DNA of 64,000 bases, from the IMG/VR virus record IMGVR_UViG_3300001589_000007, positions 6,291-70,290 of that record; one strand, written 5' to 3'. This document shows, one piece after another, positions 25,634 to 48,299 of the stretch (positions are counted from its first letter, which is position 1; each line of letters starts with the position of its first letter). The notes under the pieces are model-generated. The model was not told where the DNA came from, ran no database searches, and was given only the letters and a program-made list of their open reading frames with translations. The position numbers and the translations under genes are program-made. The stretch is from a virus.

Positions 25634-25652
25634 ATGGAGTATAGAGAGTAAT

Positions 25653-27493: not shown

Positions 27494-29311
27494 ATGAGTA
27501 AAAAACCAATTTGGATCGCGGCAATCGCAAGAGGACATAATGCAGGAGTTTGTTTACTTAAGGACGGAGAAGTAATATTTTCAGTTGAAGAGGAAAGACT
27601 ATCAAGACAAAAGTATGACGGTGGACCTTTTGCGAGCATGGTTAAAATACTAGACTACACTGATAAGATTGACTATCTTGTAGTTGCACATACACAACCT
27701 TTACAAGAAACAGCAGGTAAAGTAGATTATAGTGGTGATGATGTTTATACAGGACTAGCAAGAAAATTAGGATTAATTGATCAAAAAGCAAACAATACAT
27801 CTTTTGAACATCCTCAAGTAATTGACTTAGCATTTATGCATCATAAATTACATAGTGCATGTGCATTTTATAGAAGTGGATTTGATAGTGCAGTTAGTGT
27901 AATCGTTGACGGAGCCGGTACATTTGTTCCATTAGGAATTAATAGTGAACAAGTAATGAGTTGGGAAGTTGAAAGTATTATTGACTGCGACTATCCTGCA
28001 GAATTTAGTACTAAATTTAAGGTATATGGCACAAGGGAACCTATTCCAGGAGGCATGACTAAAATGCAATCGGATATGTTTGGCGAAACTGGAGAAAGTC
28101 ATGTAGCCATAGTTTCAGATAGAGCTGGTATTACTAAAGTGTACGAAGCAGTAACACAGTATTGTGGCTGGAGTGGAATTGAAGCAGGAAAAACTATGGG
28201 ACTATTTCCTTATGGTAAAGAAAATAGTAGTATACCTAAATTATTTGACGATCAATCTCTCTATCCTTTATCAAATAGAAACCTAATTGTTCCTAACTAT
28301 CCTAACGGTGCTATAGTAAATAGTGGCATATATGAATTTCTAAATGAAATAAATCAAATGGAAAACCAAGATAAGGATCTGTCTAAGCTAGATAGTAGAC
28401 GAGATATGGCATATGCTTGTCAAGTAGAAACTCAGGAACAAGTCGTAAAATTGATTAAACAAGCTGTTGAAGAAACAGGAAAGAAAAAAGTAGTTATTAG
28501 TGGAGGATATGGATTAAACTGTGTTGCTAACTATCATTACTTAGATGTACTTAAAGACGAAGGAATTGAAATCTATGTTGAACCAGTAAGCAACGATGCA
28601 GGCACAGCAATGGGTGCGGCAATGATGTTTTGGTACGGGTTGGAAGAAGATTCAAATGTAAAACAAACACAATCTTTATATCTAGGTCCTGATAATAACT
28701 ATACAATTGATGATATTATTAGTAAAACATCAGCAGTAGAAGGTATTTCTATTGAAGATGCTACTAACTATAATATTGTTGAACTATTAACACAGAAAAA
28801 TATTGTTACTATCTTTCAAGGTAAAAGTGAAAATGGACCACGTGCATTAGGTAATAGAAGTGTACTATTTGATCCAACATTTGAAGATGGAAAAGACTTT
28901 GTTAATGGAGTTAAACATCGAGAGTATTTTAGACCATTTGCTGGTAGCATATTACAAGAAGATGTACACGAATGGTTTGATTTGCGAGGAATGGATGATA
29001 GTCCATACATGATGTATGCAGTAAATTGTCAACCGGGTATTGCAGAAAAAATACCAAGTATTATTCATGTTGATGGTACATGTCGTATACAGACTGTTAC
29101 AAAGGAACAGAATTCACATTATTACGATCTAATTAAAACATTTAAAGATAAAACAGGTACTCCGATACTATTTAATACAAGTTTTAATTTAGGCGGAGAG
29201 CCGTTAGTTGAAACATTAGAAGATGCTATATGGACATTACAACAATCAAACATCGAGTACTTGTACTTGCCTGAATTTAAGAAACTTATAACGGTTGCCA
29301 ATAAAGAATGA
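27494..29311 (+). CDS. Carbamoyltransferase, NodU/CmcH/TobZ family
   Basis: EEERLSRQK, HHKLH, VDGAG, GGYGLNC, ENGPRALGNRS, RPFA, HVDGTCRIQTV, NTSFN. Confidence 0.92.
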   Translation: MSKKPIWIAAIARGHNAGVCLLKDGEVIFSVEEERLSRQKYDGGPFASMVKILDYTDKIDYLVVAHTQPLQETAGKVDYSGDDVYTGLARKLGLIDQKANNTSFEHPQVIDLAFMHHKLHSACAFYRSGFDSAVSVIVDGAGTFVPLGINSEQVMSWEVESIIDCDYPAEFSTKFKVYGTREPIPGGMTKMQSDMFGETGESHVAIVSDRAGITKVYEAVTQYCGWSGIEAGKTMGLFPYGKENSSIPKLFDDQSLYPLSNRNLIVPNYPNGAIVNSGIYEFLNEINQMENQDKDLSKLDSRRDMAYACQVETQEQVVKLIKQAVEETGKKKVVISGGYGLNCVANYHYLDVLKDEGIEIYVEPVSNDAGTAMGAAMMFWYGLEEDSNVKQTQSLYLGPDNNYTIDDIISKTSAVEGISIEDATNYNIVELLTQKNIVTIFQGKSENGPRALGNRSVLFDPTFEDGKDFVNGVKHREYFRPFAGSILQEDVHEWFDLRGMDDSPYMMYAVNCQPGIAEKIPSIIHVDGTCRIQTVTKEQNSHYYDLIKTFKDKTGTPILFNTSFNLGGEPLVETLEDAIWTLQQSNIEYLYLPEFKKLITVANKE

Positions 29312-30738: not shown

Positions 30739-33700
30739 GTGGCAAAAAAGAGAATTCATAATTATATATTTAAACCAGGAATAGGTTATACTGAAAATTT
30801 ATATCCTAATGCATATTCTTTATTAAACAGTAATAGAGCGTTCTTACTTGCAGAAAGTCTTGCATACATTGACCAAGAAATTATAGATGCTACTAAATGT
30901 CAAAGAGATATCGGATATATAATTGACGGTGTTGCATTTGATGTTGCACTACAAACAAATTTTAGTACACTATTCTTAGGAAGAGCTGAACGTTACTCTG
31001 TTGATAACTCTAATACAGTAATAAGAACAATTAATCGAACTAAAACAAGTGTAGCGGCACTTACTGATGTAGCGGCTGATGCTACATCGCTATCTAGATC
31101 TAATGCGGCATTTACTGAAATACTTGATATTATACAAAATAATTCACCTAATACATTAACATTAACTAATCCAACAGATGCTACTGCTAGTAGAATAGCC
31201 GCTAAAGATAAAATTATAGCAAACAAAGATTTTTTAAGAAATGAAATTATTGCATGGACTAATGTAACTTATCCTACATATGATGCAACTCAATCAAACG
31301 GTGTTTCATCTGGAGCCTGTGATGTAAAATATGCTATTGAAGCGGCCGCCTATGACATATTATATGGCGGAAACAGCGGAAGTTATGACGTAGCAAAACT
31401 ATTCCCTAACTCAGCGGCATCTACGGTGAGCTTATCTGGTACACATCAAACACATGTTGTAGCGGGATACGGAAGATTAAAAACGATCATAGCCCAAGTA
31501 GTATTAGGAACTACAGTTTCAGTAACTGCTGGAAATAGTACAGTCCAAGTTACATCAGGAACAAATGCAGATTCTTCAGACGGAACAGTAGTTACAAGTT
31601 TAATTGATATCTTTAACGATGTACTACAAACAGGTGCATCTACTTTAGCTGGGTTAACTAGAACAGTGCCAGCTATTACATGGGCGTCCACAGGAATACA
31701 AACAGCAAAAGCGGCAATTGATACTAACAAAGCAACAATAGTTGCGGCTGTTACTTTTCCAACTACATATTCATATAACCAAACAAAATGTCAAAGAGAT
31801 TTAGGATATATGCTAGACGCATATAAGTACGATCTTCGCTATGGTGGAAATAGTAAAACATACAAGTATGCTAAAAAGTATTGGGACGGTGATGTTGCAC
31901 AAATTGACGGTAACAGGGTTCCAGAGATTGATACCCATGCACACATTGCTGATTTAATAAACAATTATATTTTTCCACAAGTTACATGGACTAAATTAGG
32001 ATCAGTAGATCAAGTTACTGATGCAACTATAGCATACGAAGGATCAGCAACAACTACACGTATTACAGAATTATCTAATTTACTTATTGATACTATAACA
32101 ACAGGATTAAGTGCGTTACCTACTTTCGTAGACACAGGGGCAGGATATATTAAATTTATTGGAAACTATAATAGTTCCGATATACTTTTAATAACAAACA
32201 CATCAGATAACGAAGTTATATACAGCTTTAATGAACCTCTTAAAGGTGGGCTTACCGAAATAAGCCAAGGAACTGTAGGCGATCCAATTGGACAACAGTT
32301 TTATGCTGATCCTGACTTTGCAAAATATTTACAAGTAACAGATGCAGTTACTACTATTCAATTAAACTTTAATACCGCTTCAGGTTTATCAACAGACGAA
32401 CTACAAATATTTGTTGACACTGACGAACTTGTTGTAAGACCATACGAGTTTGGAACAGATGCTATTGAACGTATGCGAGTTGCACCGCCATTAAGTATGC
32501 TTGATGCTGACTTTGAATACGGACTACAACCTACTAAATGGTCGGCGATTGCTACCATGAGAGGGTATCCATCAGTATACGAAATACCTGGCACAGAAAC
32601 TGATGTAAGCCTAGTAAGGACTGATAGTTCAGCAGGTACCGGCGGTGTTGGTGCATCTTTAATTGTTGTTACTACTGTGGGTGCTCACGGTTTTGAAGAA
32701 GGCGATGCTATCACACTTAAAGGATTAAATCAAGGAGTAATAGGTACAGCAAGGGCTGAAGGTGCATTTATTATTACAGAAGTTCCTAGTCCGACTACAT
32801 TTACATATTATGCTAAAGCAAAGGTAGGTTCCGGCGGAACAATAGACATTCAAGTAGAATCTACACAATTAAGAAAAGCTGGCTTTTACACTGGAGCATC
32901 TATAGGTGAATCACCTGGTGTTGTAGTACAAAGTAACGGTAGTAGTGGTACAATATCACCAGCGTTAGTTGTTCCAACAGGCGAAGATATTATTCCATTT
33001 ACAGTAGTTACTGGTGCGGCACCAGAGATAGGTTCACCATTAACAGGAACAGGAATTCCAACAGGTGCTCAGGTAACTGGTAAGGTAGGTCCGGGAGGAG
33101 TTATAGTAACTCCAGTAATGACTGCTGATACAACCCAAGGATCAACATCAATCGAAGTTCAAAGTGTAACAGGAGTAGCAATAAATCAAGCCGCTGATCG
33201 AGGTGATGGACAAGCAATGATTGTTAATAGTGTTGCAGGCACTACTATTAATTTTAATGATGCATTAACAGCAGAATTTAAAGGTAACTTAGTAACCTAT
33301 ACTGATGTTAACGGTGTTAATGATACTTCAAACGGTAATGGATTGATATTAAACGTTAGCAGAGCTAGCGGAAGCTATACTGTTGATTCTATTGTAATAT
33401 CCGGAGAAAGTTATGAAGTAGGAGATCAGTTAGTTATTTTAGGTGATGTTGTAGGCGGTACATCACCAGCAAACGATATGAGTATTGTAGTTAATAGTAT
33501 TGATACAGCAGGAGAAGTATTATCTTTAACTGTAAGCGGAACGGCATTTGCTGGGAATGGAACTTTTAATTCTGTAACTGCTACATACTTACACAATAAT
33601 GGTGATGGTGGGATATGGAATGTTACATACGATGGCGGTGTATATTCAGGAACATTAGTTGAACCATCGTATTCTAACCAAACAGGTACTACATCAGGTG

Positions 33701-36700
33701 GAGCAGGTACAGGAGCAATATGGAATGTTACATCAACAAATAATACATACGGTATTACTATTGATCCAAATGAAGTTGGAGTGACAGGGTATTCTCAATA
33801 TGACTTAATCAAAATTCCTGGTAATACGCTAGGAGGTGCAACACCTGATAACGATGCACAAATAACTATTACTTCAATTAACTCTGTAGGATTTCCTACA
33901 AACTTTACTGTTGCAGGTAACGGTGCAAATGCACAAAATAACTATATAGGTGTTACATATTCAACTAATGGCTCCGGTGTTGGAGCAACTTTAAATATTA
34001 ATGCTGTGGGGTCAACATATACTGCGGCATTTTCAGTAACAGGATCAGGATTTTCTGTGGGGAATACTGTAACTGTGTTAGGTACACAGTTAGGTGGAAC
34101 AACACCAGCAAATGATTGTACAATTACTCTTGATACAGTTGATACAGGTGGTGAAATACTTACATTTACAGTAACAGGTACAGCATACAATGTTGCTACA
34201 TATAATAATGTTAGTAATGGTACAAATTTAATAGGTTCGGGTGCATCCTTTGACGTAGCTAAAAATGGTACATCATATACAGTATCACTAAATGCAAGCG
34301 GTGCTGATTATGCACCAAACCAAACTATTACATTACCAGGTATTAACTTTGGAGGTGCAACACCCAATAACGATCTTGTGTTAACAATTACTGATGTAGA
34401 TAATGATTCAACACTTACAGCAGGACCATTATTAACATTTAATGCAGTAGGTACAGCAACAAGAGGAACAAACGGGTATGTTGTAAATGACGTATTAAAA
34501 ATTAGTGGTGGTCAATTTACTAACGGACAAAACGTTACTAACGATATGATTATACTTGTTACTGGTGTAGGCGGAGCTGGTAATATTACTTCAAGTTCTT
34601 ATTCAGGAACAGCACCAAATGCTACAGCCACGTATAATGCTGTAGCCCCGAGTGGCGGTACTGGTTCAAGTTTAACTCTTGATGTTACACGAACCGGAGC
34701 AGTATACAGCCTAGTATTAAATGATGTAGGTAGTGGATATGTAGCGGCTGAAACATTAACAATAGTGGGTGCATCATTAGGTGGATCAACACCAGCAAAT
34801 AATGCTACAGTTACAATTGACGGAGTAGACGGATCAGGTGCTGTTACTTCAGCAAGTATTTCAGGTGCGGCAGCCAATGCTGGATCAGCAAATGGACTAG
34901 CATCTGAACAAAATCCAGGTTCAGGCGCAACATTTAACGTTGGATTAAGTGGTGGAAGTTATACTGTAACTATAGCTAGTGCTGGTAGCCAGTATGTTGC
35001 AAATCAAAAGTTTAAAGTACTAGGTGAAAACTTATCAGGTATAACTCCTACAAACGATGCAGAAGTAACAATTAGTAGTGTTGATGCTACTGGTGCAATT
35101 ACTGGTGCTAGTATTACAGGATCAGGGTCTACTGACGTAGCATCATTTGTAAATGTTGTTGTAAGTAATGCTTCGCTTACTGGTAACGGTGCTGACTTTA
35201 ATATCTTAAGAGATGGTACATCAGCTGATAGTAGTGTAGGTATATATACTGTTACAGGTAGTAATCAAGGTAGCGGATACGATGTAGGTAATAGAATAAT
35301 TATTGGAGGAGGATCTGTTGGCGGAACTCCTCAAACAAACGATATTACTATAAGTGTTGCAAGTATAGATAGTGCTGGTGCGATTGTAACATTTACATAT
35401 ATCGGTGATGCATTTGCTGGTACTGACTTACAATTATATTCAACAACTACAATAGATTCGGCAGTTACAGCGCCATTAAGCACAAGTCAAAATATAACTT
35501 TTGAGGCACTAGCAACATTAAGAATTACATTTACTACACCGCACGGACTTGTTCCAGGTGATACATTTATTACTACGGTATCAAGTGATAGTGGATCCAA
35601 TAATCATAACTTAGCGGCAGGATCGTTCTTAGCAATCGCAGTTCCAACAAAATTTACACTAGATTATACAGCTAGATCAGTTGGGGCTATTGTTACTTCA
35701 GGTACTGATATTATTAGTGCTATTGTTTATCCAAGACCTGATAGCTTCTTTATACATAGACCGTACGATGGAGGTGTACAACTAGGAACTGGTGGACCTC
35801 AACACGGAGCTCAAGCAATACGTCAAAGTAAAAAGTATATTAGATACCAATCAGGTAAAGGTATTATGTATACAACAGGTGCATTATTTGCTCCAAGTTA
35901 TGACCTAAGAGGTGCAACAGCTAATGGTGTAGAAACAGGCTCAACAATTACTGTCGTTACAGATGATAACGATCACGGATTACAAATTGGTGCAATTATT
36001 AAACTTATTGGTATTGATACTCCGGGATATAATGGCACATATACTGTTAATGACGTTACAGATGAGCGTACTTTTGAAGTTACTGCTGGTTTAAGATTAG
36101 GTGCTACAACTGCTACTTTAAGTTTTAATGCACAAGTTTCAACTAGTAAATGGCACGGTGCAACAGTGCGTTCAGGTATTTTTGATGATCAAAATGGAAT
36201 CTATTGGGAATACGATGGTACTAACTTATTAGTATGTCAAAGAACAAGTACTAAACAAGTTGCAGGTACTGCAACTATATCACCTGATACAAATGTACTA
36301 ACAGGTACAAATACTAGATTTCAAGATCAATTGAAAGCAGGAGACAGAATTGTTATTAGGGGAATGACACATGTTGTTGCTCATGTTAATAGCCAAACTG
36401 AAGTTAATGTTACACCGGATTATAGAGGTGTTAATACTGCGGTAGGTTGTAAGGTATGTTTGGTAAGTGATAAAAAAGTTAGACAGTCTGACTTTAATCT
36501 AGATAGATTTGACGGAACTGGGCCAAGTGGTTACAACATTGATGTAGCAAAGATGCAGATGATCGGTATTGAATACAGTTGGTATGGTGCTGGTTTTATT
36601 GAATTTATGGTACGTGGTGCTGACGGTAATTTTATCTATGCACACAGAATGCGTAATTCAAACATCAATACAGAAGCATTTATGCGTACAGGTAACTTGC

Positions 36701-38178
36701 CTGTGCGTTACGAAATTACTAATGAAGGTGCATTAGGTAGATTAAAAAATGCATTAGGTACTGGTGATACCATACTTTATTTAGATGATGTAGATTTCTT
36801 TCCAAATGCTGGAACAGTATATATTGATAACGAACTCATAACTTATACTGGTAGAGATGAATCAACTAATACATTTACAGGTTGTAATAGAGCGGCATCA
36901 TTAACAAATTTTCAATCAGGCGCACTAAGAACTTATACAGCAGGCCCGGCGGCAATACATACAGCAAAAACTGGAGTAGTGTTGGTAAGTAACACTTGTA
37001 CTCCACTTATATCGCATTGGGGATCTGCATTTATTACAGATGGCGGATTTGACGATGATCGAGGTTACATCTTCTCATACGCTGAACAAGGTCTAACTAT
37101 TAGTACTACAAGACAAACAGCATTTTTGATTAGACTAGCACCAAGTGTATCAAACGCTATTACAGGTGACTTAGGTGATAGAGAACTATTAAATAGAGCT
37201 CAACTACTACTAACAGGACTTGAAATTACAAGTGAATCAAGTACTGGCGGTATTGTTGTTGAAGGTGTTCTTAATCCTCAAAACTATCCTACTAACCCGT
37301 CATTGGTTGGTTGGTCAGGATTATCAGGACTTGCACAAGGTGGACAACCTAGTTTTGCTCAAATTGCTTCAGGCGCTGGTATTACATGGTCAACTGGTGC
37401 GGCGGCGACAACAACGACACTTACTGCACAAGGTACCATAACAGCTCAGCTAGATAGTGGAATATATAATACAAATAATAATTCAAGTTATGTATTTGTT
37501 AGTGGTATTGATTATAGAACTACATTTGGTTCAAATGATATTGAATTTGTTGTTGGACGTACTATAACTGGTGCAAATATTAGTAGTAATACAACCATTA
37601 ACGACGGATATATTGACAGTAGTGGTAATTATGGGTATTTTAGATTGAGTCGAAGAACAAGTGGTAGTATTGGTACAAACCAATCAAACTACTTTTCGCT
37701 AACTGAAGGTGGCGATCAAGTTAATACAAACTTTGCATTAGTAACACAAGCAAGTTGGGAAGCATCGGGCGGTACAAACGGAACAAATGTTGATCCAGGA
37801 ACATCAAGTCCAAACTTTCCATCAGGTACACTAATTAACAACGTTGAACAAAAGAATTTTGCTGGTACAACATATTATCGACTTACATTTAATAACGCAA
37901 TGGACGGAACACTAACAGCAGGTAGCGGTACAATTACGCTACAGTTTATTCAACCACCGTTTGCTCAACCAGGTGAAACAGTACTATCGTTTATTGCTAC
38001 ACCAAATGAGAGAGCGTCACTAGACTTATCACAGTTGAAAGAACTTACAAATACTACATTAGGCGGTAGAGGAACATTTCCAAATGGTCCAGATGTTTTA
38101 GCAATTAACGTTTATAAAACAACTGGCTCAGATGTAGTAGCTAATTTGATTCTACGTTGGTCTGAAGCTCAAGCCTAA
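30739..38178 (+). CDS. Very large virion structural protein (2479 aa)
   Basis: N-terminal KCQRDxGY helical repeats; about 8 central LGG.TP.ND beta repeats; HG(F/L)..G modules; C-terminal RYQSGKG..YSWYGAG region. Confidence 0.78.
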   Translation: MAKKRIHNYIFKPGIGYTENLYPNAYSLLNSNRAFLLAESLAYIDQEIIDATKCQRDIGYIIDGVAFDVALQTNFSTLFLGRAERYSVDNSNTVIRTINRTKTSVAALTDVAADATSLSRSNAAFTEILDIIQNNSPNTLTLTNPTDATASRIAAKDKIIANKDFLRNEIIAWTNVTYPTYDATQSNGVSSGACDVKYAIEAAAYDILYGGNSGSYDVAKLFPNSAASTVSLSGTHQTHVVAGYGRLKTIIAQVVLGTTVSVTAGNSTVQVTSGTNADSSDGTVVTSLIDIFNDVLQTGASTLAGLTRTVPAITWASTGIQTAKAAIDTNKATIVAAVTFPTTYSYNQTKCQRDLGYMLDAYKYDLRYGGNSKTYKYAKKYWDGDVAQIDGNRVPEIDTHAHIADLINNYIFPQVTWTKLGSVDQVTDATIAYEGSATTTRITELSNLLIDTITTGLSALPTFVDTGAGYIKFIGNYNSSDILLITNTSDNEVIYSFNEPLKGGLTEISQGTVGDPIGQQFYADPDFAKYLQVTDAVTTIQLNFNTASGLSTDELQIFVDTDELVVRPYEFGTDAIERMRVAPPLSMLDADFEYGLQPTKWSAIATMRGYPSVYEIPGTETDVSLVRTDSSAGTGGVGASLIVVTTVGAHGFEEGDAITLKGLNQGVIGTARAEGAFIITEVPSPTTFTYYAKAKVGSGGTIDIQVESTQLRKAGFYTGASIGESPGVVVQSNGSSGTISPALVVPTGEDIIPFTVVTGAAPEIGSPLTGTGIPTGAQVTGKVGPGGVIVTPVMTADTTQGSTSIEVQSVTGVAINQAADRGDGQAMIVNSVAGTTINFNDALTAEFKGNLVTYTDVNGVNDTSNGNGLILNVSRASGSYTVDSIVISGESYEVGDQLVILGDVVGGTSPANDMSIVVNSIDTAGEVLSLTVSGTAFAGNGTFNSVTATYLHNNGDGGIWNVTYDGGVYSGTLVEPSYSNQTGTTSGGAGTGAIWNVTSTNNTYGITIDPNEVGVTGYSQYDLIKIPGNTLGGATPDNDAQITITSINSVGFPTNFTVAGNGANAQNNYIGVTYSTNGSGVGATLNINAVGSTYTAAFSVTGSGFSVGNTVTVLGTQLGGTTPANDCTITLDTVDTGGEILTFTVTGTAYNVATYNNVSNGTNLIGSGASFDVAKNGTSYTVSLNASGADYAPNQTITLPGINFGGATPNNDLVLTITDVDNDSTLTAGPLLTFNAVGTATRGTNGYVVNDVLKISGGQFTNGQNVTNDMIILVTGVGGAGNITSSSYSGTAPNATATYNAVAPSGGTGSSLTLDVTRTGAVYSLVLNDVGSGYVAAETLTIVGASLGGSTPANNATVTIDGVDGSGAVTSASISGAAANAGSANGLASEQNPGSGATFNVGLSGGSYTVTIASAGSQYVANQKFKVLGENLSGITPTNDAEVTISSVDATGAITGASITGSGSTDVASFVNVVVSNASLTGNGADFNILRDGTSADSSVGIYTVTGSNQGSGYDVGNRIIIGGGSVGGTPQTNDITISVASIDSAGAIVTFTYIGDAFAGTDLQLYSTTTIDSAVTAPLSTSQNITFEALATLRITFTTPHGLVPGDTFITTVSSDSGSNNHNLAAGSFLAIAVPTKFTLDYTARSVGAIVTSGTDIISAIVYPRPDSFFIHRPYDGGVQLGTGGPQHGAQAIRQSKKYIRYQSGKGIMYTTGALFAPSYDLRGATANGVETGSTITVVTDDNDHGLQIGAIIKLIGIDTPGYNGTYTVNDVTDERTFEVTAGLRLGATTATLSFNAQVSTSKWHGATVRSGIFDDQNGIYWEYDGTNLLVCQRTSTKQVAGTATISPDTNVLTGTNTRFQDQLKAGDRIVIRGMTHVVAHVNSQTEVNVTPDYRGVNTAVGCKVCLVSDKKVRQSDFNLDRFDGTGPSGYNIDVAKMQMIGIEYSWYGAGFIEFMVRGADGNFIYAHRMRNSNINTEAFMRTGNLPVRYEITNEGALGRLKNALGTGDTILYLDDVDFFPNAGTVYIDNELITYTGRDESTNTFTGCNRAASLTNFQSGALRTYTAGPAAIHTAKTGVVLVSNTCTPLISHWGSAFITDGGFDDDRGYIFSYAEQGLTISTTRQTAFLIRLAPSVSNAITGDLGDRELLNRAQLLLTGLEITSESSTGGIVVEGVLNPQNYPTNPSLVGWSGLSGLAQGGQPSFAQIASGAGITWSTGAAATTTTLTAQGTITAQLDSGIYNTNNNSSYVFVSGIDYRTTFGSNDIEFVVGRTITGANISSNTTINDGYIDSSGNYGYFRLSRRTSGSIGTNQSNYFSLTEGGDQVNTNFALVTQASWEASGGTNGTNVDPGTSSPNFPSGTLINNVEQKNFAGTTYYRLTFNNAMDGTLTAGSGTITLQFIQPPFAQPGETVLSFIATPNERASLDLSQLKELTNTTLGGRGTFPNGPDVLAINVYKTTGSDVVANLILRWSEAQA

Positions 38179-38729
38179 GCGTGTATATTATAGTTTACAA
38201 TACACCTAGGTACGTCAGTTGGATAACCGCCTGCATGTAAATGACTGCCGTCAAACAATACAACCCGGCCTTTTTTAGGAGATACTCGTTGTTTCTCTAC
38301 TAGCTTAAAATTATTTTCTATTGTTTTATCTTCAAAGAATACAGTATCTCCGTCTGAATCATTTACGTAATATATTAATGCTAAATGAGGTAAGGGTAAA
38401 TCTGTATGCGGTCTGTAGTGAGGAAGTTTAGTCTTATGTGGAACTGTAATAAACAGTCTTGCTTGTATTATGTCAATTAGATTCATTTCTAGTTTTTCAA
38501 ATACAATTTGAGGAACTTTGCTAAAATTTCCAAAGTGATCAGTGTTAGTAGTACTACTTTTAAATACATGTTGGAAGCTAACCGGTAATGGATTTTCACC
38601 ATCAAACGCTGTAGGTTCTACTTTACAAGTTAAAGGAAGCATAGCATTAATATCTGTGCTTCCAAAAACTTGCATATGTAGATAATCTTGTATTTCAATT
38701 GGGATTAGATCATCACGTACTATAATCAT
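38175..38729 (-). CDS. 2OG-Fe(II) oxygenase-like protein
   Basis: PHTD, IYYVNDSDGDT, FDGSHLHAG, RCIVNYN. Confidence 0.75.
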   Translation of the reverse strand: MIIVRDDLIPIEIQDYLHMQVFGSTDINAMLPLTCKVEPTAFDGENPLPVSFQHVFKSSTTNTDHFGNFSKVPQIVFEKLEMNLIDIIQARLFITVPHKTKLPHYRPHTDLPLPHLALIYYVNDSDGDTVFFEDKTIENNFKLVEKQRVSPKKGRVVLFDGSHLHAGGYPTDVPRCIVNYNIHA

Positions 38730-39373
38730 TAGTATGCAGTTTCTAAATAATCTACAAATGCCGACAAATTATCAAACGCTAACATTGCTTTTGCAATCTT
38801 TTTATACGCATGTCGACTATTAATTAATTCTTCAGTTTCAACACCATGACCTGTACGTATTAACACAGGCCTTGCACCAACTTTCATAGCGGCTTTTAAG
38901 TCTCTTAGTCTGTCACCTGCATAATATCCTTGTTTAAATTTTACATGAGGAATTTCTTTTTCTGCACGTTTGAACATTCCTGCGTTTGGCTTTGCATACA
39001 TATCAGTTTTATGACTACATGCACTATAGTATAACCCGTCAATACTGGGGCATCCTGCTTCGCCTAACGCTTTAAACATATGCTCGTGTACTTTATCAAC
39101 ATCTTGTTCGGTATATATACCTTTATGAATACCACCTTGGTTTGTAATTATAACAATTTTATGTCCAAGTTTGCGTAATTTTACAATGGCTTCTAAACTA
39201 CCCTTTTCAAATTCCCAATCTTCTACTTTATAAACATAATCGCCTATATCTACGTTAATAACTCCGTCTCTATCTAAGCCAACAACACATTTTGGTGCTA
39301 TATATCCAGGCTTATAAAAGTCAATATCAACATCATTACTCCATACTATTTTTGGTTCAACCATCTTTAACAT
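38729..39373 (-). CDS. gmhB: D,D-heptose 1,7-bisphosphate phosphatase (HAD family)
   Basis: LDRDGVIN, ITNQGGI, KPNAGMF, GDRLRD motifs; operon context. Confidence 0.82.
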   Translation of the reverse strand: MLKMVEPKIVWSNDVDIDFYKPGYIAPKCVVGLDRDGVINVDIGDYVYKVEDWEFEKGSLEAIVKLRKLGHKIVIITNQGGIHKGIYTEQDVDKVHEHMFKALGEAGCPSIDGLYYSACSHKTDMYAKPNAGMFKRAEKEIPHVKFKQGYYAGDRLRDLKAAMKVGARPVLIRTGHGVETEELINSRHAYKKIAKAMLAFDNLSAFVDYLETAY

Positions 39374-39773
39374 TCCCTGTTATTTCTTCAAGCATTCCAG
39401 CTTGGCTATCACCAGGAATAATCCTGTAATTATCTTCAACACTATCAGCAGTGCTTACTTCAGTTATACTACTACCATCTTCTAATGCTTCTAACTGATG
39501 TGGACGCAAAGGCGGATTGTGCCATGTCATGCCTTGTGTAAGAGTGTGTGTAAATAATGTAGCAGTAGTTGTATCTAACCATCTAACAACAAAACTACCT
39601 TCGTTTACAAACCATGTCTCGTCTTTTTCTTTATGAAAATGCATACTAAATTTATTTCCTTTTTTCTCAAAGAACATAATTTTTCCGCAGTACTTGTCAG
39701 TAGTTGCCCAAATAATTTCATATCCCCAGCCTTTGTCTACTTTACCTTCAAGTCTTGTAGGTGTCTCATTCAT
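39357..39773 (-). CDS. Cupin protein (sugar isomerase-like)
   Basis: KGWGYE, SMHFHKEKDETW and HQL cupin metal-binding motifs. Confidence 0.75.
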   Translation of the reverse strand: MNETPTRLEGKVDKGWGYEIIWATTDKYCGKIMFFEKKGNKFSMHFHKEKDETWFVNEGSFVVRWLDTTTATLFTHTLTQGMTWHNPPLRPHQLEALEDGSSITEVSTADSVEDNYRIIPGDSQAGMLEEITGNVKDG

Positions 39774-40597
39774 TAAAGATTCTCCTCAATCCATTCAAAT
39801 GGTGTGGTAAATTTAAATTTACCGATTGTGTTTAATAATTTATCATTGTTACTTTTTGTGAAACTCTGGTATTGACTTTTTACACTATCTGGAATAGGTA
39901 TTTCTTTTACGACAGCATTATGTTTATTAGCAATACATTTAGCAATATTGCCAAAGCTAGTTGCTTCACCTGTACCTACATTCCATATACCACTTTCATC
40001 TATATCTACAAATTTTGAAATAATTCTACAAACATCATCAACACATATAAAATCTCTACATATAGTATCACTACCTTCAAAAGGAAGTACAGATCCTTTA
40101 ATTGCTTGATCTGTAAATTTATGAAATACACTCATTTGAAACCCTTTATGATCTTCGTGGTTGCCATAAACATTAAAAAATCTTAATCCTTGTACATTGC
40201 ATTGATATTCACTCCAATCTAGCTTTTGTACAGTTCTATCAAATAAATATTTACTCCATGCATATGGTGACTGAGGTTGTAACGGACCGTCTTCTGTAAA
40301 ATGCGTAGTAGGACCATATACACTTGCACTTGATGCATAGATAAGGTCAACGCCTTGCATATCACACACATGTAATAATCTTTCACTAAAGTCAAGATTT
40401 TGTTTCATAACTTTTTCTACATCAGTTTCTGTGGTGCTACTAATAGCACCTAAATGTATAACTTTATCAAATTGACTGCAATCAGGAACTACATTTTCTA
40501 TCCATTCGTATTCAGCAATTCCGTGTCCTTCTTTCATAAGGTGTGCAGACAGATTTTTGCCAATAAAACCACTACTTCCAGTAATTAATATTTTCAT
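39773..40597 (-). CDS. hldD: ADP-L-glycero-D-manno-heptose 6-epimerase
   Basis: TGSSGFIG, HLGAISSTTE, YASSASVYG, YAWSK, LRFFNVYG. Confidence 0.85.
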   Translation of the reverse strand: MKILITGSSGFIGKNLSAHLMKEGHGIAEYEWIENVVPDCSQFDKVIHLGAISSTTETDVEKVMKQNLDFSERLLHVCDMQGVDLIYASSASVYGPTTHFTEDGPLQPQSPYAWSKYLFDRTVQKLDWSEYQCNVQGLRFFNVYGNHEDHKGFQMSVFHKFTDQAIKGSVLPFEGSDTICRDFICVDDVCRIISKFVDIDESGIWNVGTGEATSFGNIAKCIANKHNAVVKEIPIPDSVKSQYQSFTKSNNDKLLNTIGKFKFTTPFEWIEENL

Positions 40598-40599
40598 TA

Positions 40600-41424
40600 T
40601 TAAGAACTTGCTCCTTCGATTGCTATGATATTCTCTGTAATACGCTTGTTAAATTCTGATTCGTCTTGGTACGAATATATTCCTTCACTTAATGCTCTAC
40701 TAAAACTTGCACTCATATCTAAATTTTCACTAAGTTTTTTACATGCTAAACTTGTCTCATAACCTCCACTAAGCCCAACAAGTTTTTTAACACTTTTATG
40801 TTGCGATAAGTCGTGATACAAATTAGCTTCGTTAGGAATAGTTAGTTTTAAAATAACTTGTGGTAGAGTATTATCAAACCTTTTACTAATATTATTTGCA
40901 AACGAATCTAAATGAGGTTTGATACTTTCATTTAATAACATTTCAAAATGATGTTTATGTTCAATATCAATAGGAATTTCAGGCTCAATAATCGGAACTA
41001 AGTTTTGGTTAGCAATTTTCATAGCATACTTAAACTGCTGATCCACAATACTTTCAATCATGTCTTCAGTTTTTACAATACTACGCATTTTTGTACCAGT
41101 ACATCCATGCCAGGATGCGTATTCTGTCATGGAAAAAATATCAAATTCTTTTAATAAGCCATCCTCATCGCAACCACTATCAATTTTTAAATAGGATTCA
41201 ATTCCTTTATTCCTAAGTACTTCTACTGCTCCCTTATCAACAGAATCTTTGTAAAGTATTGCCGCCCAAATATTACTACTATTAAATGCAGGAGAGTTTA
41301 TCATTCTCAAACGCATTTCGTGTACTAACTCCATTTTATTTTCTTCTGTATATTCCTGTCCGTAGCGGTCTAAAACTCCGCCTGTTGATCCGCCGCTATG
41401 ATCCATTGCCGCTATAAATTTCAT
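40600..41424 (-). CDS. Fructose-bisphosphate aldolase class I (bacterial type)
   Basis: FIAAMDHSGGST, GTKMRS, VPIIEPE, ILKLT, LSGGY, ASFSRAL. Confidence 0.85.
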   Translation of the reverse strand: MKFIAAMDHSGGSTGGVLDRYGQEYTEENKMELVHEMRLRMINSPAFNSSNIWAAILYKDSVDKGAVEVLRNKGIESYLKIDSGCDEDGLLKEFDIFSMTEYASWHGCTGTKMRSIVKTEDMIESIVDQQFKYAMKIANQNLVPIIEPEIPIDIEHKHHFEMLLNESIKPHLDSFANNISKRFDNTLPQVILKLTIPNEANLYHDLSQHKSVKKLVGLSGGYETSLACKKLSENLDMSASFSRALSEGIYSYQDESEFNKRITENIIAIEGASS

Positions 41425-41978
41425 GTTAAGTCCTCCTCTAATATATAACTAAGATCTTTATCTGGATATGGAATGAAATTAAAATTAATTACACATCTAG
41501 TTTTTTGATCTGTGCATGTTGTTCCTGTATGTTTCCACCTTGCTGGAAAAACTATTAGTCTATTTGCTTTACTCTTGACTGATTTTATTTCTTTATTTTC
41601 GAATCTAGTTTCACCATTGTTTGTATTTAAGTAATAGATAGCAGTTAATGCTCCAGGAACAACAGTATCAGCATGATGTCCGTGTTCTACTATTTTATCT
41701 GCTTTTGGTATTAGATTTGCTTTTATTCTAATAAGCTGTAGAGGCTGTAAAATTTCAAAAAATCTCCACATTAGATTAAATGTTTCTTGATTTGTAGTTG
41801 GTCCCATACTTTCATGAATGTTATGTACAAACTGTATTTGATAGTCTTCGCTACCTTTTGCTTTATCATCCTCATCTACAACATCAGTTTTATAAAACCA
41901 CGGGAATAACTCTCCGTACATAATATCTTTTAGCTCAGTAAATTGCTGAGTAGACAATGCGTTATCTATTACTTTCAT
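41421..41978 (-). CDS. 2OG-Fe(II) oxygenase-like protein
   Basis: HAD, IYYLNTNNGET, NRLIVF..HTG, RCVINFN. Confidence 0.75.
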   Translation of the reverse strand: MKVIDNALSTQQFTELKDIMYGELFPWFYKTDVVDEDDKAKGSEDYQIQFVHNIHESMGPTTNQETFNLMWRFFEILQPLQLIRIKANLIPKADKIVEHGHHADTVVPGALTAIYYLNTNNGETRFENKEIKSVKSKANRLIVFPARWKHTGTTCTDQKTRCVINFNFIPYPDKDLSYILEEDLT

Positions 41979-43104
41979 CTAATATCCTTGTTGTACTGTG
42001 ACCTTCTATTAAAGGAAAAATAACAACTTTAGCAAGATGATTACCTACTACAGTGTCAAATGTATAGTCGCCTCCTTTTACTATAATATCTGGCTCTAAT
42101 CTGGTAATTGCTTCTAACGGTGTATCTTCTTCAAATATAATAACGTCATCTACAAAACCAAGCTCTAAGAGGCTTTCCTTGCGGGTGTCTTCTTCGTTTA
42201 TGGGTCTTAAATCGCCTTTTAATCTCTTAACACTAGAATCGCTATTAATACCCACTATAAGTCTATTTCCAAGTGTTTTAGCATAGTTTAGTAGTTTTAA
42301 ATGCCCAACATGTAGTATGTCAAATACACCATTAGTAAACACAATAGTATCTTCTACATCCTCTTGTTTAAGTATATATGTACCTGCATGTTTTACACTT
42401 TCTGTTGACCCTTTAACAGCAATCTCTAAACATTTCTTATGTGTATAATCTTTTGTAAGGCCATAAACAAATGCGGCCATAAAACAATCACCAGCACCTG
42501 TAACATCAGATACTTCAACAGTTTCAACAGGGACTTCATATACTTCGTTGTCTATTGTAGCAATTACACTATGTCCTGCATCAGTAGTAATAATATTACC
42601 TTGCCATTGATCGAATTCAAACTTAGTATATTCACTATTATTGGGCTTTACTAACCAAGCACCTTCATATTCGTGTGCATAGCGTTTAGGATCTACAATA
42701 ACTTTAGATCCCTGACTATTAATATGTGCAATAATTTCTTTAGAATTATCTAACACACCTTTGTCATAGTCACTTAGGATAACATAGTCCCATTGTGAAA
42801 AATCACTACATAGTACATTCTTAAGTACAGCATTTGAATCTGCATGCTCGTCTTCATCTAGGCGTGTAATATAGTGTCCATCAGATATGATTCTAGTTTT
42901 AATACTACGTGGTTGTTCGGTTTGTAATAGTGTTACATCTACACCTAAGTTTTTAAGATTTTCATATACAAGTCCTGCTCCACCTAAAGACGTAGAAATT
43001 TTTTCAACATTAACAATAGGTACGGGAGCTTCTGGGCTAATTCGTGAACTAGTCCCGTAAATATATTTGTCAACTATTACGTCACCGAAAACTAAAACTT
43101 TCAT
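41962..43104 (-). CDS. hldE: Bifunctional heptose-7-phosphate kinase / heptose-1-phosphate adenylyltransferase
   Basis: RISPEAPVP, LSDYDKG and DVTGAGD (PfkB kinase) fused to FTNGVFDILHVGH..KGGDY (nucleotidyltransferase). Confidence 0.9.
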   Translation of the reverse strand: MKVLVFGDVIVDKYIYGTSSRISPEAPVPIVNVEKISTSLGGAGLVYENLKNLGVDVTLLQTEQPRSIKTRIISDGHYITRLDEDEHADSNAVLKNVLCSDFSQWDYVILSDYDKGVLDNSKEIIAHINSQGSKVIVDPKRYAHEYEGAWLVKPNNSEYTKFEFDQWQGNIITTDAGHSVIATIDNEVYEVPVETVEVSDVTGAGDCFMAAFVYGLTKDYTHKKCLEIAVKGSTESVKHAGTYILKQEDVEDTIVFTNGVFDILHVGHLKLLNYAKTLGNRLIVGINSDSSVKRLKGDLRPINEEDTRKESLLELGFVDDVIIFEEDTPLEAITRLEPDIIVKGGDYTFDTVVGNHLAKVVIFPLIEGHSTTRILDESNR

Positions 43105-43109
43105 ACTTT

Positions 43110-43138
43110 ATTATACCTGATTATCTAGGTTTTGTCAA
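43110..43138 (-). promoter_or_regulatory. Consensus sigma70 promoter for the heptose operon
   Basis: TTGACA (43138-33), 17 nt, TATAAT (43115-10), 5 nt before the hldE ATG. Confidence 0.85.
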
Positions 43139-43565
43139 GTAAATCTATTACTTGGAACACAGTTTGTAATTTATTTAAACTAATTTTACTCTGGAGTGTA
43201 TTACGTAATCCATGATGTAATGGCTTTGGCCAATGTCCAAAACTTACCCATGCATAGCCGTCGTGTTCTTCGTTTAGGCAAGGAATAAACTCGTTATCTA
43301 TAACACACAAATATGTATGAAATAAAAATCTAGAGTCAGTAGATACAAATGTTTCTAGAGGCATTGTTTTAGTAATAGTTGGAATCTCACCAATTTCCTC
43401 AGTGATTTCCCGCTGTAACCCTTCCCAAGGAGTTTCTGCTCCTTCGTTAGTGCCACCTACTAATCCCCATAAGTTATTGTGTTTACCGTTACGTCGATGC
43501 AAAAAGAGAAACCTTTTTGTTTTTAGACTATAAAATAACGCACCACTACATACTATCTCTTTCAT
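43125..43565 (-). CDS. NUDIX hydrolase
   Basis: WGLVGGTNEGAETPWEGLQREITEEIG Nudix box. Confidence 0.85.
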   Translation of the reverse strand: MKEIVCSGALFYSLKTKRFLFLHRRNGKHNNLWGLVGGTNEGAETPWEGLQREITEEIGEIPTITKTMPLETFVSTDSRFLFHTYLCVIDNEFIPCLNEEHDGYAWVSFGHWPKPLHHGLRNTLQSKISLNKLQTVFQVIDLLDKT

Positions 43566-43573
43566 AAAAATAG

Positions 43574-45016
43574 TTATCCGTTAAGTGCTACTCTCCAAGT
43601 TCCTTGTGGATATAATCCCTCGACACTAAGTAGCCATTCTTCGCCATTCCAGCGATACTGTACACCTGTGTTTAGGTTAGTGATATATGTTATTGTTGTG
43701 TTATTAATGGTAGCTGATGCATCAAATATTACGCTCCATGAACTTCCGCTCCATTCAATAATATCATTCTCACTAGCAACTGTATCTGTATTATCTAAAT
43801 TTTTCCAAGCATCGGCTCCATCTGTATTACTAGCATCACCTATTGCTCCAAGTAATAATACCCGAGTTCCTTGTGTTTTAGTTGCAGGAAAAGTTTTAGT
43901 AGGATCAATAATAAAGTCAACTGAAGTTAATGAACTAAGTGCCCTATCTGAACTATCAATAATAGTATTAGCAGGAAAACTATCTATATCCCAATTAACA
44001 ACAATCTGTGTATCGTTTAGTTCATTAAGAGCAAATGTACCTGTTATTGCACTACTGGTATCTAGTTTAGTAAGGAACACTCGACTAATTCCTGCTTGAT
44101 ATTGTCCGGGGTGTGTATCAATTATATTTCGCCAACTTGTTTGTCCTATTTTACCCTTATCTGATAATTCAACAACTGTTCCATTAACAAATAAATCATA
44201 ACCTTGATAATTTGTTGTTACAATATGTGGTGTAGCAGAAGTTTCTACTGCTCTACTCTTATTTTTATCTAATGTACCTGGAACAGCAGAGTCATCAAAT
44301 GCATTTATAAGAGGAGTGGATAACCCTAATTCTACAGTTCCTTGCGATTCATCATATATGCTAGTAATAATATTTGCAATAACACCTAATCTTTTTACTT
44401 TAACAGGAGGTGATATGTATATAGGAGTTGTAAATGTAAGTGTTGCAACATCTATTTGATCATCAATACCTACCGGTATAGCACGTGAACTAAAATTTAC
44501 ATTATCTAATGTTACAACTGACAAACTAGTCCAATCAATATAATTATCTGTAGTTTGTAATTCTAAACTAGGATTAAATAACATTAGTATTTGTTCTAAT
44601 ATTTGTAATTTTTGATCAGTATTTGTAGACCAAATATCTAAATTAACAGTTAACATATAAGGCGTCGGCATTAGTCTTTCAACTGTATAATTTTTACCTT
44701 CAAAATTTAGATATTCTTTGCCAGTACTGTCATATGCTTTTTCTCTTACGTTAACTTTACTAACAAAACTTTGATCTGCTGTCCTGTCTCTATCTAATGC
44801 TAGTCCAGAAATATATAATGCCATTCGAGGAGCACTAGGTATTTTATTTTCACTATTACCTTTAATGATACTAGCAACTTGCCTAGTTAAATCTCCATAT
44901 AGCACTGGAATAACTGTCTCTACTCCCTTACCATCTTTATAAGAATAGCTACTAAACATCCTTACTAGCTGTGTAATATATCGTCTTACTTGTCCATCAT
45001 AAAAATGTTGACTCAT
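43574..45016 (-). CDS. T4 gp15-like tail sheath stabiliser/terminator with C-terminal extension
   Basis: HFYD.Q.RRY..Q, PRMA, PTPY....L.IW......LQILEQIL..FNP; adjacent to neck genes. Confidence 0.7.
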   Translation of the reverse strand: MSQHFYDGQVRRYITQLVRMFSSYSYKDGKGVETVIPVLYGDLTRQVASIIKGNSENKIPSAPRMALYISGLALDRDRTADQSFVSKVNVREKAYDSTGKEYLNFEGKNYTVERLMPTPYMLTVNLDIWSTNTDQKLQILEQILMLFNPSLELQTTDNYIDWTSLSVVTLDNVNFSSRAIPVGIDDQIDVATLTFTTPIYISPPVKVKRLGVIANIITSIYDESQGTVELGLSTPLINAFDDSAVPGTLDKNKSRAVETSATPHIVTTNYQGYDLFVNGTVVELSDKGKIGQTSWRNIIDTHPGQYQAGISRVFLTKLDTSSAITGTFALNELNDTQIVVNWDIDSFPANTIIDSSDRALSSLTSVDFIIDPTKTFPATKTQGTRVLLLGAIGDASNTDGADAWKNLDNTDTVASENDIIEWSGSSWSVIFDASATINNTTITYITNLNTGVQYRWNGEEWLLSVEGLYPQGTWRVALNG

Positions 45017-47028: not shown

Positions 47029-47652
47029 ATGCAGTATATAACAACTCCAATGTGGTCAGTTCCACTATTTAAGACAAATATAGGTAAGCCTGATCCCATT
47101 ACTATGGCTTGGGTTAAGAATTTAGATTATCCTCACGAAGCCTCAGGACATGATCATACTGACGACAAGTACATATTAGATCAACCTAAATTTAAAAAAC
47201 TAAAAGCAAAATTAAAAGAAGTATGTGATTTCTTTGTACACGAAGAATTAGGAATCAAAGACGATATTAATTTTGAAATACAAAATAGTTGGATTAATAG
47301 ACATCGTGCAGGAGAACACAATACATTACACTGGCATTCAAACGCCATGTTAAGTGCAGTATACTATATTCAAAACGAGCCAGGAGCAGGAGCAATTCAG
47401 TTTCAACGTTCGCATTTATACTATAATTTATTTCATGATACAGTAAGAGTTGACTATAAAGATAAAGTACAAAATCAGTATAATTTAGATCTATTTGCTA
47501 TTGAACCAGTTAGTGGCGATCTTGTTATATTTCCATCACATGTTGAACATATGGTTACACAAAATCAAACACCATCAGAACGTTATAGTCTAGCATTTAA
47601 TCTATTTGCTAGAGGACATGTTGGTGCAGGGACGTCACAGATAAAATTATGA
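47029..47652 (+). CDS. Putative 2OG-Fe(II) oxygenase (TIGR02466-like)
   Basis: SWIN, HWHSNAMLSAVYY, IFPSHVEH, RYSLAFN. Confidence 0.78.
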   Translation: MQYITTPMWSVPLFKTNIGKPDPITMAWVKNLDYPHEASGHDHTDDKYILDQPKFKKLKAKLKEVCDFFVHEELGIKDDINFEIQNSWINRHRAGEHNTLHWHSNAMLSAVYYIQNEPGAGAIQFQRSHLYYNLFHDTVRVDYKDKVQNQYNLDLFAIEPVSGDLVIFPSHVEHMVTQNQTPSERYSLAFNLFARGHVGAGTSQIKL

Positions 47653-48299
47653 ATCATCAAGTAATTCCTTTATTTTCAGTACCTCTTTTTAAGTCTAATA
47701 TTGGAAAAGTTGATCCTATCACTTTAGCTTGGATTAAAAACTTAAATTACCCTTCGCAAGCAGTCGGACATGACGGAAGTGATGATCATTTACCTAAACA
47801 TAAGCAGGGTATGCATATACTACATAACAAAAAACTTAGGAAACTTAAAGACCGTATACAAAACTGTATTAACTATTTTGTACACGAAGTGCTTGATATA
47901 GAAGATCATATTAACTTTGAAATACAGGCAAGCTGGATCAATAAAATAGAACTTGGTGATGCTGATATTATAAAACACGGCCATGCAGGCTCAATGATTA
48001 GTGGAGTTTATTATATAGATGCTGACGATACTACAGCACCTATAACTTTTGAAAAGGCATATATGTATCCAAACTTATTTCATAATAGTGTACCATTAAC
48101 ATTTAAGAAGCAAAATTATAATCAATATAATATAGAAGAATTTACATTAAATCCTCTCCCAGGAGATATATTATTATTTCCGTCTCATCTAGAACATACA
48201 GTACATCGTGTTGATACTAAAAAAGATAGGTACGGAATAGCATTTAACTGTTTTGCTAAAGGCGAAATAGGATACGGATCAGAACAAATAACGTTATAG
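47649..48299 (+). CDS. Putative 2OG-Fe(II) oxygenase (TIGR02466-like), tandem paralogue
   Basis: SWIN, HGH...ISGVYY, LFPSHLEH, RYGIAFN. Confidence 0.78.
   Translation: MNHQVIPLFSVPLFKSNIGKVDPITLAWIKNLNYPSQAVGHDGSDDHLPKHKQGMHILHNKKLRKLKDRIQNCINYFVHEVLDIEDHINFEIQASWINKIELGDADIIKHGHAGSMISGVYYIDADDTTAPITFEKAYMYPNLFHNSVPLTFKKQNYNQYNIEEFTLNPLPGDILLFPSHLEHTVHRVDTKKDRYGIAFNCFAKGEIGYGSEQITL

Follow-up and report, generated by a model that had tools for sequence, protein, structure and literature searches.

The bacterial pathway to ADP-L-glycero-beta-D-manno-heptose comprises GmhA, HldE, GmhB and HldD, and related gene sets occur in T4-like phages. Caulobacter phage Cr30 encodes a heptose-7-phosphate kinase, a glycosyltransferase and an epimerase, and it uses a true GmhA of the SIS fold without a cupin. 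Cyanomyoviruses carry a string of lipopolysaccharide (LPS) genes (P-SSM2 PSSM2_309-313, with counterparts in S-SSM7, S-SM2, S-CAM3, P-TIM68 and Sf-CH8) that combines a nucleotidyltransferase, a PfkB kinase, a phosphatase, a cupin, an HldD-like protein, often a dioxygenase, and a fibre gene. Here we describe the corresponding locus in a 64,000-nucleotide stretch of viral DNA (hereafter the window; positions 6,291 to 70,290 of IMG/VR record IMGVR_UViG_3300001589_000007, itself a 70,290-base fragment with a CheckV completeness of 21%). The source phage is T4-like, as the window encodes giant fibre proteins, a gp15-like tail sheath stabiliser, the tail sheath and the large terminase.

The region is best explained as an ADP-heptose module of a marine T4-like jumbo phage, with neck/tail genes on one side and a giant fibre gene on the other. 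As in the bacterial pathway, HldE-like, GmhB-like and HldD-like enzymes are present, here in one tight operon. In contrast to the bacterial pathway, the module is devoid of an SIS-fold GmhA and contains an invariable extra cupin, its HldE kinase domain and HldD are shortened and its GmhB lacks the Zn-binding loop. The cyanomyovirus string shares most of these components, including a cupin 38-41% identical to that of the window, but its HldE is split and its phosphatase is a 103-116 amino acid (aa) TIGR01689-like HAD protein. Cr30 has the heptose theme in common with the window phage and differs in the GmhA and cupin genes. The best overall explanation, to which we assign a probability of about 0.5, is that the cupin takes the place of GmhA in this module and that a class I aldolase encoded in the same operon is accessory.

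The probable ADP-heptose module and its core enzymes

The module consists of eight minus-strand genes (38175-43565), neighbours of which overlap or are spaced by 0-20 bases. From 38175 towards 43565 these encode a 2-oxoglutarate (2OG) oxygenase, the GmhB-like phosphatase, the cupin, the HldD-like protein, the class I aldolase, another 2OG oxygenase, HldE and a Nudix hydrolase, as identified from the list of open reading frames (ORFs) and from Pfam and NCBIfam profile matches. The gene content reported in the initial annotation was confirmed, namely that no SIS GmhA is found and that the aldolase and the cupin are packed among hldE, hldD and gmhB.

HldE (41962-43104, minus strand; 380 aa) is the predicted bifunctional heptose-7-phosphate kinase and heptose-1-phosphate adenylyltransferase. 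Both the kinase and the nucleotidyltransferase domain were matched (NF008454, 272 bits against an equivalog cut-off of 521; TIGR02198, 177 bits; TIGR02199, 156 bits), with 380 aa facing 475 profile positions and a shortened kinase domain. The HldD-like ADP-heptose 6-epimerase (39773-40597, minus strand), a short SDR protein (PF01370, 124 bits), reached 230 bits with TIGR02197 (cut-off 274.6), by far its best family, GalE being next at 78 bits. The GmhB-like HAD-IIIA phosphatase (38729-39373, minus strand) scored 138 bits with NF006506 (cut-off 178) and 104.7 bits with TIGR00213 (cut-off 149.6). For each of the three the named family is clearly the best match, yet the score stays below the curated NCBIfam cut-off. 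The module very probably makes ADP-heptose.

The closest solved structures to the GmhB-like protein are the GmhB entries 4pnh and 3l8e (E about 1e-22), and its HAD catalytic motifs are intact (DRDG at residue 34, TNQ at 77, KP at 128, GDR at 153). It had been pointed out in the initial annotation that the usual zinc motif is missing, and alignment with 4pnh and 3l8e bore this out with one refinement: the loop, YYSACSHKTDMYAKP, is short and has lost the CxC while the CxH is kept. Among 30 distinct variants from related loci, the Zn-binding CxH...CxC loop was missing in all 30 and the C and H were mostly lost as well, YYSASS[HASR]K.DMYAKP being the typical sequence. Judged from these alignments, loss of the Zn-binding loop is a trait of the whole phage GmhB-like family. 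E. coli GmhB also weakly hydrolyses fructose-1,6-bisphosphate.

The cupin and the isomerase step

The cupin gene (39357-39773, minus strand) encodes a candidate sedoheptulose-7-phosphate isomerase. Both metal-binding motifs, G-x5-H-x-H-x4-E-x6-G and P-H, can be read in the sequence; among the closer relatives H47 and H92 do not vary, and H45 and E52 are conserved to at least 90%. The match to Cupin_2 (PF07883) reached 25.5 bits, just below the cut-off of 27.2, and the AlphaFold2 model is of high confidence (predicted local distance difference test score 93.4). With its His, His, Glu and His ligands and its barrel model, the protein belongs to the metal-binding cupins. GmhA proteins, on the other hand, are recognised by the SIS fold (TIGR00441 or PF13580), to which this protein, a cupin by both Pfam and the model, does not belong. 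Any role shared with GmhA is thus one of analogy, not of family membership.

The gene company of the cupin was examined in the best 80 of 597 viral relatives. These loci were counted as contigs, many of which are near-copies of one another, so the counts refer to contigs rather than to independent events. Both hldE and hldD were found in 80/80 loci, the Nudix gene in 76 and gp15 in 75, and in the window as in most loci the cupin adjoins hldD. Among the best 120 homologs listed, cupin identity ranged from 70 to 93%. The link to heptose genes is kept through rearranged orders, such as hldE-cupin-HAD-hldD or nucleotidyltransferase-cupin-kinase-hldD on other contigs, and through split or fused forms of HldE. 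The cupin belongs to the constant core of the module.

Fusions in the cupin family join it to a nucleotidyltransferase (P0217), to a HAD domain (P0154 and P0188) and, also among the longer family members, to an Asp/Asn-hydroxylase-like domain; no fused SDR domain was detected in the 24 longer members scanned. Further loci with the HAD-cupin fusion P0154 were searched for and only its own contig was retrieved. On contig L175 an HldE accompanies a HAD-cupin fusion and on L169 a PfkB kinase-cupin pair lies inside a replication module, in both cases with no SDR nearby. The domain composition of the longer members would favour a function in the early steps of the pathway.

Outside the viral records, all 11 cupin matches in the genome collection are contigs of metagenome-assembled genomes (MAGs) labelled as unrelated phyla (L165, L166 and L167-L175). 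The two largest, L165 (335,231 bases) and L166 (153,204 bases), share the tail-module gene order of the window. The presence of phage-type or heptose-module genes on at least six of the 11 suggests that these contigs are phage DNA that was binned into cellular MAGs.

Next to this constancy of the cupin stands the absence of gmhA. The own record of the window gave no TIGR00441 match at E<=10, so the question raised in the initial annotation of whether gmhA lies elsewhere in the genome was answered in the negative for this record, though for a fragment that is 21% complete, which by itself says little. Forty-five related viral records likewise contained no real TIGR00441 match (five matches of 12.4 bits fall within a 2554-aa fibre ORF), which is weak evidence because all are fragments at most 51% complete. 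With two GmhA queries, tblastn found nothing in about 170 loci, the 80 cupin loci included. The 335,231-base MAG contig, on which the genes are ordered gp14-like, gp15, Nudix, hldE, oxygenase, hldD, cupin, gmhB and fibre, is also without a detected gmhA, and the two GmhA-like matches of its MAG belong to other contigs; this is stronger evidence against a hidden gmhA than the fragmentary records provide. Furthermore, none of six complete cupin-bearing cyanophage genomes (S-CAM3, Sf-CH8, P-SSM2, S-SSM7, S-SM2 and P-TIM68) matched TIGR00441, while the positive control Cr30, in which gmhA adjoins the heptose kinase gene and no cupin is present, gave 101.8 bits. The 12 phage records that did match GmhA include no cyanophage.

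Mutual exclusivity of the cupin and gmhA in phage heptose clusters had been set beforehand as a test of the replacement idea. An alignment built from five GmhA sequences was used to scan viral contigs, and 80 loci out of 294 relatives were read. An hldE-like gene was nearby in 32/80 and a cupin of this family in a single one (L210), and conversely gmhA occurred in 0/80 cupin loci. Across the viral heptose loci sampled, the two genes thus appear nearly mutually exclusive.

Among 74 cupin family members, the function-specific Pfam families matched most often (E<=0.01) were PF01050, the C-terminal domain of mannose-6-phosphate isomerase (32/74), and PF07385, D-lyxose isomerase (31/74); the relatives P0154 and P0176 pass the PF01050 gathering cut-off of 23.6 bits. 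The type II phosphomannose isomerase cupins (PF01050) and D-lyxose/D-mannose isomerases (PF07385) have the His/His/Glu/His metal-binding motifs in common with the window cupin, for which the proposed substrate differs in being a seven-carbon ketose phosphate. Mannose-6-phosphate and lyxose isomerases both yield manno/lyxo-configured aldoses, and this is the stereochemistry that GmhA delivers.

A different function for the cupin is suggested by the structural comparison. The best match of the model in VIA-align was the cupin domain of CapF (Z 15.6, root-mean-square deviation 3.1 over 118 residues, 15% identity; TMq 0.68-0.69 in Foldseek), a nucleotide-sugar epimerase, ahead of isomerase cupins at about Z 13-14: the Thermococcus phosphomannose isomerase (Z 13.8, as for 7zvy), a lyxose isomerase (Z 13.6, as for 7nzo) and a cupin-type phosphoglucose isomerase (Z 12.8). 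As CapF ranks above the isomerases, the fold does not favour an isomerase; with many cupins almost tied in both Foldseek and VIA-align, function is not settled by these rankings, and the model does not decide whether the protein interconverts aldoses and ketoses or epimerises nucleotide sugars as CapF does. The cupin might then be a CapF/WbuC-like epimerase or tailoring enzyme that works with the HldD-like SDR on ADP-heptose through a keto intermediate, the isomerase step being provided by GmhA of the host. PF14667, the family of the CapF cupin, was matched by 21/74 family members and TIGR04366 (WbuC) weakly. In the capsule protein CapF of S. aureus (PDB 2zkl) the C-terminal cupin likewise stands beside an SDR in nucleotide-sugar synthesis, although there it is fused to the SDR whereas the window cupin only adjoins HldD, and one relative (L173) lies between two SDR genes.

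Against such a function speak the lack of any SDR fusion among the 24 longer members, whose partners are HAD, nucleotidyltransferase and Asp/Asn-hydroxylase-like domains, and the loci with HldE or a kinase beside the cupin and no SDR in the vicinity. A tailoring enzyme would moreover not be expected to be missing from 79/80 viral loci of the gmhA type. As to supply by the host, GmhA-like matches (E<=1e-10) were obtained in 94/301 genomes sampled from the phylum to which a MAG titled Melainabacteria belongs, a phylum possibly related to the host; phage hosts were not told apart within this sample. Conversely, cyanobacterial LPS is described as heptose-free in the abstract of a review (PMC4515613). 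We consider a CapF-like role possible but rather unlikely.

The cupin could also have nothing to do with sugar activation and be, for instance, a small metal-dependent dioxygenase or binding protein that travels with the module by linkage. By sequence and profile, its matches to solved structures are generic metal cupins led by oxalate decarboxylase and quercetinase, distant relatives (L171, L172, L174 and L196) lie away from any heptose gene, and five 2OG oxygenase genes are present in the window. Mere linkage is difficult to reconcile with hldE and hldD accompanying the cupin in every locus despite rearranged orders and split or fused HldE, with fusions to pathway enzymes and with the high identity among the homologs, and we regard it as very improbable.

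On balance we somewhat favour the cupin as the isomerase, based on comparative genomics. In the proposed mechanism, the cupin would convert sedoheptulose-7-phosphate to D-glycero-D-manno-heptose-7-phosphate, the seven-carbon counterpart of the conversion of fructose-6-phosphate to mannose-6-phosphate by cupin-type mannose-6-phosphate isomerases, and so fill the place of GmhA. The remaining steps to ADP-L-glycero-beta-D-manno-heptose would then fall to HldE, the GmhB-like phosphatase that lacks the Zn loop, and HldD. Several observations weigh against the cupin as isomerase in addition to the structural ranking and the SDR-flanked L173, which has no heptose kinase. The window cupin itself reaches none of PF01050, PF07385 and PF14667 at E<=0.01. 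In L210 (5868-13766), the only case of co-occurrence in the 80 gmhA loci, an SIS GmhA-like gene and the cupin are 4.8 kb apart; the SIS gene has a GHMP kinase gene 1.1 kb upstream of it and a cytidylyltransferase-like gene 1 kb downstream, and the cupin lies behind a lysozyme-like gene. GmhA of the host may provide the isomerase step, and the marine viral records of the window's lineage are all fragments, at most 51% complete.

The initial annotation had proposed a two-part replacement scheme, with the cupin as non-orthologous substitute for GmhA and the aldolase as supplier of the C7 ketose. The former part is supported by comparative genomics, with hldE and hldD in all 80 loci, gmhA in none, and relatives that match aldose-ketose isomerase cupins, all of which is consistent with a substitute; the latter did not hold, as described below. 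Our literature search returned no relevant paper linking a cupin to heptose, to a sedoheptulose-7-phosphate isomerase or to GmhA. In a pelagimyophage paper (PMC7029224), rfaE figures as an LPS-related gene, and the words cupin, aldolase and isomerase are absent from the main text.

The class I aldolase and the small HAD phosphatases

The aldolase gene (40600-41424, minus strand) encodes a class I fructose/sedoheptulose-bisphosphate aldolase (PF00274, 28.6 bits, above the cut-off of 22.2; NF003784, 232 bits, below the equivalog cut-off of 392). It is related to the Staphylococcus/Porphyromonas-type enzymes, and a match to PDB 2iqt (138 bits, residues 3-266) aligned the active-site motifs AMDHSGGS, LKID, GTKMRS, EPE, ILKLT, LSGGY and SFSR. 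These are at least 95% conserved across 56 distinct phage homologs and presumably hold the Schiff-base lysine and the acid/base residues. The window aldolase differs from the bacterial type in being phage-borne, and its homologs outside the window's lineage are usually preceded by a small HAD gene. Searched against phage records, it matched only two unannotated records labelled Staphylococcus, which may be host DNA, and no cyanophage record, and no class I aldolase is listed for the clusters of P-SSM2, S-CAM3, S-SSM7, S-SM2 and P-TIM68. On class I aldolases among the metabolic genes of phages, the literature search yielded nothing relevant.

If the aldolase were the built-in entry of the pathway, as had been proposed, dihydroxyacetone phosphate and erythrose-4-phosphate would be condensed to sedoheptulose-1,7-bisphosphate, which the Zn-loop-less GmhB or a host phosphatase would convert to sedoheptulose-7-phosphate for the cupin, so that the module by itself would lead from triose phosphate to ADP-heptose. 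Erythrose-4-phosphate is an accepted substrate of class I aldolases of this type. In the window the gene is intact and lies closely packed in the stretch from hldE to hldD. Nevertheless, only 9/80 cupin modules contain an aldolase and 71/80 are without it. In the MAG of the 335-kb relative no aldolase match was found at E<=0.001, though the module is present. When 80 loci out of 84 viral relatives of the aldolase were read, heptose genes surrounded it in 11, and 69 were outside any heptose cluster. In a quick maximum-likelihood tree of the 56 distinct sequences, the nine distinct module-borne aldolases form one clade (Shimodaira-Hasegawa-like approximate likelihood ratio test 95) nested among aldolases of other contexts, so that placement in the module looks like a single event. 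The proposal of a built-in C7 entry was therefore not upheld, and the complete route through the aldolase is improbable.

In nine other loci that were annotated, the aldolase lies within islands of metabolic genes. Its neighbours there are glyceraldehyde-3-phosphate dehydrogenase (GAPDH), phosphoenolpyruvate carboxykinase, phosphoribosyl pyrophosphate synthetase, thymidylate synthase, dihydrofolate reductase, clamp loader and regA; GAPDH is directly upstream of the aldolase in L029 and one gene away in L060. With such central-carbon and nucleotide neighbours, a general role in gluconeogenesis or the pentose-phosphate pathway is more plausible than an entry step reserved for heptose. The aldolase is likely an accessory rather than a dedicated entry enzyme: a common central-carbon gene in such phages, it would have moved once into the module of the window's lineage, where it may raise the sugar-phosphate supply without being a required entry step. 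Two findings count against this assignment, namely that the aldolase stays intact inside the module and that in other contexts its partner is a small HAD protein with relatives in heptose modules.

This pairing is frequent. In the 69 non-heptose aldolase loci, the small HAD gene was directly upstream of the aldolase in 49 and further upstream on the same strand in 11, was absent in seven, and two loci left no room for it; it thus lies upstream on the same strand in 60/67 loci with room. The proteins are 110-120 aa, capless and TIGR01689-like, and the genes often overlap the aldolase gene (L034 9661-10792; L068, L073 and L081; most of L006-L082). Among solved structures they come closest to 9iqw, a 'capsule biosynthesis protein' (E 4e-11). 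The pairing hints at a link to bisphosphate sugars, and an aldolase with a bisphosphatase-like partner could form fructose-6-phosphate or sedoheptulose-7-phosphate irreversibly.

Relatives of these small HAD proteins are the phosphatases of the cyanophage heptose modules. The cyanophage proteins of 103-116 aa labelled 'phosphoheptose isomerase' turned out to be HAD phosphatases and not SIS proteins (L083 6652-6996, which is P-SSM2 PSSM2_311; L001 5688-6008; L002 5658-6008; L193 4625-4960; L194 3026-3337 and 4667-4996; L195 5333-5671). For the P-SSM2, S-CAM3 and Sf-CH8 copies, the best NCBIfam match was TIGR01689, 'capsule biosynthesis phosphatase' (E 1e-8 to 1e-6), the P-SSM2 copy bears a DxDGT motif, and for the copies of S-SM2 and P-TIM68 a Pfam scan returned no match to SIS families. 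By sequence, these proteins are most likely the enzymes of the GmhB step. The isomerase label is repeated in a genome announcement (PMC7378029). In the same cyanophage records the cupin is labelled 'nucleotidyltransferase' or 'cysteine dioxygenase'.

A FastTree phylogeny of 41 sequences placed the aldolase-adjacent HADs in a clade apart from those of heptose modules. The aldolase-HAD pair would leave small room for the aldolase as entry point but does not by itself connect these two genes with heptose. In cupin records that have no phosphatase near the cupin, neither a small HAD nor an aldolase was found elsewhere in three records (G008, G012 and G018), fragments at most 51% complete; two further records of that search, fragments of the same limited completeness, have a GmhB-like gene beside the cupin. 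Conversely, 25 aldolase-bearing records, all fragments, contained weak cupin matches (33-37 bits) in three; given the fragments, neither result carries weight. A broader proposal is that marine T4-like phages bypass two host steps, with the class I aldolase and a capless HAD phosphatase making sedoheptulose-7-phosphate from triose phosphate and erythrose-4-phosphate before the cupin isomerase commits it to heptose; the phosphatase would be the Zn-loop-less GmhB-like protein in the window phage and the small HAD upstream of the aldolase in other phages. We consider this bypass highly doubtful.

Some related loci deserve separate mention. L081 (5895-12954) is an aldolase locus with two cupins and with DAHP-synthase-family (KdsA-like) and CTP_transf_3 (KdsB-like) genes, which may be a phage set for a KDO-type sugar with a cupin where an SIS arabinose-5-phosphate isomerase would be expected. 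In S-SM2 (L194 2355-3337, SSM2_206-207) a second small HAD gene directly follows a gene of the class II aldolase/adducin family, so that an aldolase, here of a different fold, again adjoins a phosphatase. The P-TIM68 'transketolase' located by the module was considered as a source of precursor and rejected, as it is an E1-dehydrogenase/transketolase-pyrimidine-domain protein and not a plain transketolase.

Neighbouring genes and significance of the module

The final gene of the module encodes a 2OG-Fe(II) oxygenase (38175-38729, minus strand; PF13640, 30.5 bits) and abuts a giant fibre gene; a homolog follows gmhB in 25/80 cupin loci. The second 2OG-Fe(II) oxygenase (41421-41978, minus strand; PF13640, 31.4 bits) lies between hldE and the aldolase and was found in 26/80. 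Three further genes of this kind (47029-47652, 47649-48299 and 59242-60006) bring the number in the window to five. The Nudix hydrolase (43125-43565, minus strand; PF00293, 56.9 bits) is a conserved upstream neighbour of hldE, and beyond it the T4 gp15-like tail sheath stabiliser (43574-45016, minus strand; PF16724, 87.5 bits) adjoins the module, which thus sits within the virion gene block. On the other side, a giant fibre-like protein of 2479 aa (ORF at 30739-38178, plus strand) converges on the module, and homologs of giant fibre genes flank it in 64/80 cupin loci. Megablast of the module against cultured phage records gave no match.

Amid the giant fibre genes, a plus-strand ORF for a candidate GT9-like heptosyltransferase (25602-26630; 342 aa; a weak match to PF01075, 16.9 bits, E 0.004, cut-off 22) is followed by a 287-aa ORF and then by a carbamoyltransferase gene (27494-29311, plus strand; PF16861, 196 bits; PF02543, 96 bits), the whole set occupying 25602-29311. 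The GT9-like enzyme and the carbamoyltransferase are the likely users of the ADP-heptose.

Elsewhere in the window, four proteins of 1600-1800 aa (71-22190) carry FG-GAP repeats, a laminin-G/concanavalin-like domain or CBM_5_12 modules and, by their domains, are candidates for unusually large carbohydrate-binding fibres. An ORF with a TnsA-like endonuclease N-terminal domain (55954-56394) lies inside the virion/packaging block and may encode a homing-type endonuclease.

The aldolase illustrates that location inside a pathway operon need not mean membership of the pathway, and, as a lead of its own, the conserved pairing of the gene with a small HAD in other phages may help to explain how phages redirect host sugar-phosphate pools. 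Were the bypass real, phage carbon metabolism would gain two enzyme functions that had gone unrecognised, one in the aldolase-phosphatase pair and the other in the cupin. If the cupin is indeed a sedoheptulose-7-phosphate isomerase, long-standing labels would be corrected, of the cupin as 'nucleotidyltransferase' or 'cysteine dioxygenase' and of the small HAD as 'phosphoheptose isomerase'. Moreover, the first step of heptose activation would then have a second, unrelated fold, present in hundreds of ocean phage contigs as well as in cultured cyanophages.

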